A stretch of DNA of 64,000 nucleotides. It comes from a virus. Shown here one piece after another: positions 51,070 through 52,647 of the stretch (positions are counted from its first letter, which is position 1; every line of letters starts with the position of its first letter). The notes beneath the pieces were generated by a model that was given only the letters and a program-made list of their open reading frames with translations, ran no database searches and was not told the DNA's origin. Position numbers and translations under genes: made by a program. The stretch covers positions 118,720-182,719 of the IMG/VR virus record IMGVR_UViG_3300036768_001490. One strand, given 5' to 3'.

Positions 51070-51642
51070 TCACCGCAGCAGGGTGGCCTGGTCCGCTGGC
51101 AACGGGCCAGGCCCCCTTTGTTTTTCCACCTCGCTACTGTTACCGTCCGGCGGCACGTCCAGTGGCAGGTGCCGCGTCCGAATGCTCTCCACGTCAAAAA
51201 ACCCGTATTCCCCTGGCTGCCATGGGCTCAACCCCCGGTAACGCCCCGCCAAGGACATAAGGCGCCACAGGTCTTCGTCCGTGACGACGGCAGGTACCAC
51301 GCAGTGAATGCCAACCACCTGGCCGGGCAGGAGCGCCTCATGCACCGCGTAGCGCCAGCGGTTGCCAGCGCCACTGGGATAGTAGCGGCGGAACCAGCCG
51401 CCTGGCCGCCCCGTGCAGCCGTCCACGGCGATGTCCCAGAGAATCTTGCCCACCTCGTCCTGGTGCCTACCCAGCAGGCGAGAGGCGAAACGCATGTTCG
51501 CACGGTGCCAGCTGGAGAGGAAAATCACCTGACCGTGCGGATTCCGCGGCAGAAGGAAACGTCCGCGGAACCGCTCCTTGGCATTGCCCAGACAGTGCTT
51601 CGTGAACCGTATCCTTACGGTCAACTCACGCATAGCAGCCAT
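51070..51642 (-). CDS. RAMP/Cas7-like RRM-fold protein
   Basis: LTVRIRFTKHCLG, LPRNPHGQVIF.SS, HEALLPG, and C-terminal loop AGRYRGLSPWQPGEYGFFDV parallel the RAMP pattern ...G..RGLG.WR..G.G.F.V. Confidence 0.65.
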   Translation of the reverse strand: MAAMRELTVRIRFTKHCLGNAKERFRGRFLLPRNPHGQVIFLSSWHRANMRFASRLLGRHQDEVGKILWDIAVDGCTGRPGGWFRRYYPSGAGNRWRYAVHEALLPGQVVGIHCVVPAVVTDEDLWRLMSLAGRYRGLSPWQPGEYGFFDVESIRTRHLPLDVPPDGNSSEVEKQRGPGPLPADQATLLR

Positions 51643-51690
51643 GCCCCCTGGCAACTGCAACGACCATTCTACACGATCCCAGCGCAAACA

Positions 51691-52647
51691 TCAAATACGT
51701 TTCTGCGCCCGATAGTGAGACAAGAAGCGGTCCGCTTCCTCCCGGTCGCCAAAGAAGCGCAAGGGGTCAAAGTGTGCCTCCGGGTGACGCGGCTGGACCT
51801 CCAGCAGCCAGACAATGGCCACCAGGTCCGCCAGACGACGGCAGCCACGCAACAGCCCATCCGGGCAGACGTCCTGTCCGCACCTCCCTGCGGCAAGGGC
51901 GCGCCCCAGGAAGCCTGTGGGGCTGCTACCCTGCCCGCCGTACCAGGTCTGCACCACCCGCACGGCACGGTCGAAATGCCTACCCGGCGGACCGTCCCCT
52001 AGGTAGGCGCGCATGTTGGCCGGGACCAGTCCCAGGTGCGCGTGCAAGCGCCCCAAGCGACCAGGATGGGTCGGGTGCTTGTACCAGCGTGGATCCACAA
52101 TGTCGCACAGCAAGCGGCAGCCCGCGTCCACGTCCAACCCAGGGACGAAGCTGAGTGCCGGCCAGGCCGGGTGGTAGACCACGATGCGGCGCACGATCTC
52201 GGGAACGCTGACCGAGCCAGCCAGCTGCTGGATCATGGCGTAGGTGCAAAAGTCCAAGTTGCTCATGTCGTGCCACATGCCCGGACAGCGGCTCGAGTAG
52301 GTCGGCTGCCACAGGTGCTGCAATACCGCCACCGGGTCGTCACGCAGCGCCGCCGTGGGCACCAGAGCAGGCGCCGCCAGCTGCACGCGCTGCTGCCGGT
52401 ACATCTCCGGCTGACTGGCGCGCAGCTGCTGGACATGGACGACCAGAGGCGCGTTGGCCCAAGTCCCCAGCAGCCTGATGCAAGCAGCCGAGGACAAGGG
52501 GAAGCCAAGAACGTCCGAACGAAGAAAGTCCTGGGCCGGCAGAAAACTGTTCACTGCCAGCTGGCCGTCGTCCCCATACCAGACCAGGCCGTCCGCGTCC
52601 GTGTGCAGCCGCAGGACTGCCACCCGTCCGGGCGCCCCAGCGGACAT
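51691..52647 (-). CDS. IS110-transposase/Nop-domain-like protein with a degenerate RuvC-like N-terminus
   Basis: LSFVPGLDVDAGCRLLCDIVDPRWY...RLHAHLGLVP matches the IS110/Nop L..IPG.G...A..L..EI.D..RF...L....GL.P pattern; DEDD acids and the serine loop are not evident. Confidence 0.65.
   Translation of the reverse strand: MSAGAPGRVAVLRLHTDADGLVWYGDDGQLAVNSFLPAQDFLRSDVLGFPLSSAACIRLLGTWANAPLVVHVQQLRASQPEMYRQQRVQLAAPALVPTAALRDDPVAVLQHLWQPTYSSRCPGMWHDMSNLDFCTYAMIQQLAGSVSVPEIVRRIVVYHPAWPALSFVPGLDVDAGCRLLCDIVDPRWYKHPTHPGRLGRLHAHLGLVPANMRAYLGDGPPGRHFDRAVRVVQTWYGGQGSSPTGFLGRALAAGRCGQDVCPDGLLRGCRRLADLVAIVWLLEVQPRHPEAHFDPLRFFGDREEADRFLSHYRAQKRI

Follow-up and report, generated by a model that had tools for sequence, protein, structure and literature searches.

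Paired genes for a RAMP-like and a compact TasR-like protein in the replication operon of a clade of large uncultured phages

The last 64,000 nucleotides (nt) of the viral contig IMGVR_UViG_3300036768_001490 (IMG/VR; positions 118,720 to 182,719 of 182,719 bp), referred to below as the window, contain two adjacent minus-strand genes whose predicted products resemble guide-RNA-binding proteins: gene A, for a basic single-RRM RAMP that is Csm3/Cas7-like and distantly Vipr-like, and gene B, for a compact protein of the TasR/IS110 fold. As proposed in an earlier note made from the sequence alone, the two genes are consecutive and co-oriented between sbcC and the gene for a superfamily 2 (SF2) helicase. 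Gene B occupies 51691..52647 and encodes 318 amino acids (aa), whereas the open reading frame (ORF) of gene A extends over 51070..51687 from a TTG codon. Because more than 130 homologues of gene A begin at MRELTVR, gene A itself most likely spans 51070..51633 and encodes a protein of 187 aa. The gap between sbcC and gene B is only 5 nt, and the spacer between B and A is about 60 nt. Both genes are single-copy in this genome, and their GC content at third codon positions (0.76 for gene A and 0.81 for gene B) is usual for its coding DNA, the genome-wide GC content being 66%. Nearly all genes of the window are carried on the minus strand, and the contig, which has no terminal repeats, is estimated by CheckV to be 84% complete. 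Neither protein has a match in Pfam, PHROGs, PADLOC or NCBIfam.

Gene A is predicted to fold as a RAMP with a single RRM. The model, built with an alignment of natural homologues (predicted local distance difference test, pLDDT, 89.7), displays the RRM core beta-alpha-beta-beta-alpha-beta, as assigned by DSSP. A Foldseek search against the PDB returned 105 matches at E <= 1e-3, with Csm3 and type VII Cas7 at the top (best E 3e-6), and a VIA search yielded Z scores of 10-12 over about 150 of the 159 ordered residues (best Z 11.9 over 156 residues), with all 50 matches listed being Csm3/Cas7-family RAMPs. Among viral models, those closest to gene A in BFVD are solo RAMPs of 194-208 aa. The Csm3/Cmr4/Cas7 backbone subunits of type III, III-E and VII systems are the closest solved folds, from which gene A differs by the lack of a CRISPR RNA and of cas partners, and by an identity of only about 10%. 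Three glycines invariant in the A family (G130, G134 and G144) make up a glycine-rich loop before the last strand, and a beta-hairpin is predicted at residues 80-101, a candidate for the thumb hairpin of RAMPs. The protein has an isoelectric point of 10.1 and many invariant Arg and His residues. No conserved Asp was found in the A family in the loop after strand 1, which we take to be the site of the catalytic Asp of Csm3. With identities of 45-65% across relatives, as opposed to 27-49% for SbcC, gene A ranks with the most conserved proteins of the module, about on a par with the helicase and above SbcC, gene B and the DnaB-like protein.

A distant relationship connects gene A to Vipr, the RAMP of the VIPR systems, in which it is accompanied by an accessory vap gene and by vrRNAs, in which 9-16 YNNGG repeats precede a 3' tail (bioRxiv 10.64898/2026.04.26.720920). 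Like the Vipr of phage SUSP1 (PDB 36pp), gene A encodes a phage solo RAMP of about 190 aa outside CRISPR, and its neighbour is likewise a DNA-acting accessory gene. The A-family profile matched the profile of the SUSP1 clade of Vipr with a probability of 89.5% (hhalign, E 1.9e-6) over 39 columns only, the match being restricted to the last helix, the G-loop, to which the invariant glycines align, and the last strand; the PDB sequence search with gene A independently retrieved the 'SUSP1 Vipr protein' as a weak match (E 0.52). In Vipr, the GGY motif of the vrRNA is read by H17, D177, R138, W178 and R179, and the D177A mutation abolishes function (bioRxiv 10.64898/2026.04.26.720927). In the hhalign mapping, the counterpart of D177 is P137, a residue invariant throughout the A family, and that of R179 is the variable Q139, whereas W138 of gene A is not conserved. 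Given that the key Asp falls on an invariant Pro and R179 on a variable position, gene A is, as judged from the alignment, a distant Vipr relative that would be unable to read GGY in the known manner. It differs from Vipr further in that the helical bundle between strand 1 and helix 1, which in Vipr holds the skipped target base (K33), is not predicted, residues 11-38 forming short strands only; in having no pentanucleotide vrRNA array; and in being a core gene rather than part of an accessory locus. We describe gene A as a new, guide-blind relative of Vipr.

Gene B is predicted to possess the architecture of TasR, with an N-terminal RuvC-like and a C-terminal Nop-like domain. Its model (again built with natural homologues; pLDDT 91.0, predicted TM-score 0.89) aligns end to end with the TIGR-TasR chain 9mty_B (Z 10.2, 238 residues); residues 132-312 match TasH (Z 7.9-8.2), and the whole protein matches IS110-type chains at Z 6.9-7.8, with IS621 and ISCro4 at Z 7.6-7.8. 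A Foldseek-independent search of 48,161 representative chains gave TasR as the only match at Z >= 8; next came TasH and ISCro4, and after them generic RNase H/RuvC-like domains. The earlier note had called gene A RAMP-like and gene B IS110/Nop-like, and both calls proved correct, since structure searches of confident models return the named folds (for gene B, TasR, TasH and IS110 at Z 10.2, 8.2 and 7.8). The likeness of the Nop-like domain is confined to the fold: there is no sequence signal in profile or PDB sequence searches, the PDB searches with gene B profiles returned nothing relevant, and none of 32 diverse members of the gene B family matches the Pfam IS110 or Nop families. The ESM Atlas look-up for gene B was uninformative, the Atlas model having a pLDDT of 0.35. 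Members of the family fall into 947 clusters at 50% identity, almost all of them 290-330 aa long. As the longest helix of the model, 262-284, extends over only 23 residues, there is no coiled-coil scaffold.

The residue pattern of the same 32 members indicates that gene B is catalytically dead and devoid of the acidic RuvC set, in agreement with the earlier suggestion of a nuclease-dead protein. The N-terminal domain retains R13, H15, N65, H126, D132 and Y136, but up to residue 135 the only acidic position that is at least 80% conserved is D132, at the domain boundary, and strand 1 carries R-L-H. The C-terminal domain has no conserved Ser, S34 being the sole conserved Ser/Thr of the protein. 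An inactive RuvC site is also found in PateTasR and CsTasR, so that gene B resembles TIGR-TasR (PDB 9MTY; PMC12045711), its best structural match, in both its domain composition and its lost activity; it differs by the fixed core position in a replication operon and by the absence of a TIGR array that we could find, of the long coiled coil and of sequence-level similarity. The IS110/IS621 bridge-RNA recombinases share with gene B the RuvC plus Tnp/Nop-like architecture, aligned end to end over about 245 residues at the Z scores given above, yet gene B has neither the DEDD residues nor the catalytic Ser, lacks an upstream bridge-RNA region, the gap to sbcC being 5 nt, and is single-copy and not mobile. 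A further close counterpart is an array-less 'divergent tas clade' of compact TasR proteins from dense viral genomes, for which the source of the guide was left open (Xu et al., bioRxiv 10.64898/2026.09.09.750476); the same study reports that dead TasR proteins, when guided, retain the ability to bind DNA and to repress transcription. Compared by description only, gene B matches that branch point by point and is probably a member of it, although the preprint, which flagged the branch in 2026, mentions neither a RAMP neighbour nor an SbcCD/helicase context.

Genes A and B belong to a gene order, SbcD-SbcC-B-A-SF2 helicase-unknown-DnaB-like-primase-PolA, that about 70 viral contigs of 150-240 kb have in common. 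The search anchored on gene A recovered this order in 3 distant metagenomic loci and 22 IMG/VR contigs, and it persists where SbcC identity drops to about 27%. In 26 of the 27 A-anchored loci, gene B is the immediate upstream neighbour of A, and gene A lies downstream of B in 47 of the 52 viral contigs anchored on B, with 0.4-1.7 kb inserted between the two in three B-anchored loci (L052, L059 and L078; loci are designated by our own numbers). The linkage in relatives, on which the idea of a functional pair depended, is thus borne out. The sole A-anchored exception is L014, in which gene A directly follows SbcC and B is missing; conversely, gene B directly precedes the helicase, with no gene A, in L065-67 and L075, and in L062 gene A is replaced by several small ORFs. 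Searches with tblastn of 50,697 phage records (INPHARED copy), using A, B, a divergent A and the SF2 helicase as queries, produced no match, so the clade has no cultured relative in that copy. The conserved position and order in about 70 contigs lead us to conclude that the B-A pair is a core feature of the replication module across a large phage clade, rather than a variable defence or anti-competitor cassette. We did not find a RAMP-TasR pairing in the literature searched, including the preprint on the array-less branch, PMC12045711 and the VIPR paper. Within those bounds, the near-constant pairing of A and B in a replication operon is new, and the earlier statement that no described system combines the two folds holds, the array-less compact TasR branch itself having already been noted (bioRxiv 10.64898/2026.09.09.750476).

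In the window, the pair is immediately preceded on the minus strand by SbcC (52653-54809) and, before it, SbcD (54810-55928), both with Pfam and PHROG matches, and is immediately followed by the SF2 helicase (49410-50963; Helicase_C and phrog_16), in line with the synteny among relatives. The rest of the replication module (42487..49405, minus strand) encodes an unknown protein of 264 aa, the DnaB-like helicase (46856-48592), a primase (45780-46859) and a fusion of uracil-DNA glycosylase (UDG) with PolA (42487-45753). A scan for sigma-70-like promoters gave two consensus matches in 12.7 kb, compared with 0.8 expected, and both flank gene A. One of them, TTGATG-17-TAGAAT at 51666..51694 on the minus strand, lies in the B-A spacer upstream of and facing gene A, which may therefore own a promoter for the host RNA polymerase inside the operon. 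The UDG-PolA fusion, which combines a family A DNA polymerase with an N-terminal uracil-DNA-glycosylase-superfamily domain and a 3'-5' exonuclease domain, is present in every relative examined, and a weak UvsX-like match lies further along. Just upstream of SbcD, two relatives carry genes for a PfkB-type kinase and a cytidylyltransferase-like protein (L001, 1068-2638; L005, 1-1506), possibly a sugar-nucleotide pathway beside the replication module. A 649-aa ORF of the window (39868-41817, minus strand) has no family match.

No guide array came to light. YNNGG or NNNGG repeats, exact or degenerate, did not exceed shuffled controls in the window or in the whole 182.7-kb contig, and no fixed trinucleotide recurring at a 5-nt period was found in a scan that covered this genome only; as a positive control, the YNNGG scan recovered the arrays of phage SUSP1 as runs of 12, 6, 5 and 4 units. 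Because the contig is incomplete, the scan was extended to four relatives of 202-235 kb with a completeness of 90-100%, and these contained no (YNNGG)x6 at up to one mismatch and no (NNNGG)x9. One NNNGG run with 8 of 9 units matching (genome positions 98487-98531) was rejected as a vrRNA, since shuffled controls reach the same level, the site falls within long open frames and the relatives lack it. Searches for tandem, dispersed and CRISPR-like arrays (TRF, repeat families and a CRISPR-style k-mer scan) returned only coding repeats. In particular, no tandem or dispersed repeat array was found that could represent a TIGR array, which is of the dual-repeat or the stem-loop type with box C/D, the stem-loop type with degenerate motifs not having been sought with a dedicated tool. 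The window contains no cas gene and no CRISPR-like array, as the earlier note had observed, and has no Rfam match at the gathering threshold. Two further stretches of non-coding DNA that had been put forward as candidates, 56181-56512 and 60457-60995, showed no array, no Rfam match and no repeat shared with the locus.

The repeats that these scans did detect are of coding origin. A 16-mer recurring every 60 nt at genome positions 51.4-52.3 kb is not a CRISPR array but a coding repeat without variable spacers; the region (51380-52300 of the genome, outside the window) consists of about 15 tandem 60-nt units inside a long open frame and encodes a 20-aa repeat. The 18-nt and 57-nt tandem repeats of the window are likewise coding repeats and not arrays. 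At 60996-63871 on the minus strand, 3-4 tandem paralogous genes, spaced about 800 nt apart, are made of 57-nt (19-aa) repeats with weak Tcp10_C-type Pfam matches, and within the 649-aa ORF a repeat at 40101-40345 (TRF period 6/12/63; unit CCTCGT on the plus strand) is read as an acidic run.

The interval between gene A and the SF2 helicase, 50964-51069, had also been singled out as candidate non-coding DNA, and here the suggestion held in part: it does harbour a candidate gene for a small RNA (sRNA), albeit on the opposite strand and with the ribosome-binding site of the DnaB-like gene as its apparent target. The candidate (50993..51123, plus strand), which is convergent with gene A, comprises a sigma-70-like promoter (TTGCGA-17-TATAGT, 50993-51021), a predicted RNA of about 96 nt (51028-51123) and a terminator, an 11-bp hairpin with a T-tract at 51085-51113, embedded in the poorly conserved 3' end of gene A. 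The RNA is predicted to fold into a 5' hairpin, a linker and the terminator (minimum free energy -46.5 kcal/mol, z -3.7). The layout recurs in relatives that have a spacer between A and the helicase: their promoters on this strand are close to consensus, and 10 of the 13 pairs of the terminator stem covary.

The loop CACACCT and the linker CCCTCAC of this RNA are complementary to the ribosome-binding region of the DnaB-like gene (48593..48610, minus strand), which reads GTGAGGGAGGTGTGTGTC before the ATG at 48592; in the window, they face GTGAGGGAGGTGTG, 7-14 nt before that ATG. Pairing was judged by the statistics of exact complements, the duplexfold energies of ViennaRNA on whole sequences being uninterpretable. 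In the window alone the complementarity is weak, 21 of the 242 control windows being as good, but 9 of 14 loci have matches of comparable or greater length (8-14 nt) in the same position. Those of L009 (13 nt), L013 (14 nt) and L015 (10 nt) exceed all control windows, those of L005, L008, L011, L012, L014, L027, L028 and the window (about 9-10 nt) are within the top 3-9% of controls, and those of the remaining three loci (7-9 nt) are at chance level. Because the complementarity recurs at the same position across loci, a regulatory link between the sRNA and the DnaB-like gene is plausible. The sRNA is evidently not required for A and B, since many loci that keep both genes (L001, L003, L010, L024 and most of L035-L061) have no room for it.

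From the folds, the lost residues, the outcome of the array searches, the single copy and the synteny, we infer, with a probability of about 0.5, that A and B are array-independent, nucleic-acid-binding proteins that serve as fixed accessory factors in the recombination-dependent replication of this clade. In such a role, gene B would bind, but not cleave, branched DNA or RNA:DNA hybrid structures, gene A would coat a single strand, be it RNA or single-stranded DNA, and the two would act at DNA ends, D-loops or R-loops passed from SbcCD to the helicases, primase and polymerase. Several observations weigh against this interpretation. Some lineages have only one of the partners, A without B in L014 and B without A in L065-67, L075 and L062, so that neither gene is strictly required by the other; the conserved sRNA gene adjoining A could specify its RNA partner; the genome is only 84% complete; and the array negatives were obtained without a dedicated search for stem-loop tigRNAs, the fixed-trinucleotide scan being limited to this genome. 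The resemblance might also stop at the level of the fold, with A and B playing, for instance, a structural or regulatory protein-protein role in the replisome that does not involve strand binding of the RAMP or Nop type. Neither protein matches any family profile, the PDB sequence searches returned nothing for B and only the weak Vipr match for A, and the Z scores of gene B are moderate (7-10), with TM-scores of 0.35-0.57. We nevertheless consider such a role improbable: the matches listed for gene A are without exception Cas7-family RAMPs, its G-loop matches Vipr at the profile level, and the protein is strongly basic with conserved Arg and His, whereas for gene B the exhaustive search placed TasR above every other fold, with a match that covers both domains.

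The programmable RNA-guided or anti-competitor module envisaged in the earlier note is not supported: no guide array was detected in this genome and no YNNGG/NNNGG array in the near-complete relatives, the Vipr Asp aligns to Pro, and A and B are fixed single-copy core genes. A genuine RNA-guided DNA-binding module, in which B would silence its targets in the manner of the dead TasR repressors with a guide that is not array-encoded or escaped detection, nonetheless has arguments on its side. Both folds are otherwise known mainly from binders of guide RNA; dead TasR together with TasA are RNA-guided repressors, stem-loop tigRNAs can occupy flexible or intragenic positions, and an alternative guide source for the array-less branch was left open (bioRxiv 10.64898/2026.09.09.750476); and a single vrRNA, degenerate repeats and an accessory helicase gene are known from VIPR types. 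The guide could accordingly be a single divergent guide RNA, a set of intragenic stem-loop tigRNAs or derived from transcripts. We regard this as unlikely, given that searches for periodic or tandem arrays were negative in this genome, as were those for YNNGG/NNNGG arrays in the four near-complete relatives, that the GGY-reading Asp aligns to an invariant Pro, that the tight gene spacing leaves no room in many relatives, and that its fixed core place in a replication operon sets the pair apart from the known VIPR and TIGR loci. Somewhat more doubtful still is a ribonucleoprotein in which gene A, with or without B, would associate with the convergent sRNA and help to control translation of the DnaB-like helicase, as a scaffold or chaperone that would time replication. 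An sRNA gene with a sigma-70-like promoter, a terminator and a stable predicted fold does adjoin A, its layout is conserved and its terminator stem covaries; the complementarity to the 5' region of the DnaB-like gene beats all controls in three loci and ranks in the top 3-9% in further loci including the window; and Csm3-type RAMPs, the closest structural matches of A, line RNA-targeting complexes. On the other side, many loci keep A and B without space for the sRNA, and the complementarity in the window amounts to only 7-9 nt and ranks 21st of 242 controls. Finally, as a long shot, A and B could form a ribonucleoprotein machine that draws on phage transcripts or on the adjacent sRNA in place of a guide array, the RAMP lining the RNA and the dead TasR-like protein holding the RNA:DNA hybrid, such that the resulting R-loops would start or restart replication or load the helicase beside SbcCD; if true, this would represent an RNA-guided step recruited into a viral replisome.

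Be the role of A and B array-independent, as we favour, or guided, an array-less compact TasR-like protein is almost always paired with a Vipr-like RAMP in an uncultured clade of phages with genomes of about 200 kb. The pair provides a testable case in which the two main scaffold folds for guide RNA occur together outside any array system, and it may reflect either the exaptation of these folds for replication and recombination or a new way of sourcing guide RNA. As such, it also bears on the proposed viral origin of the RAMPs.

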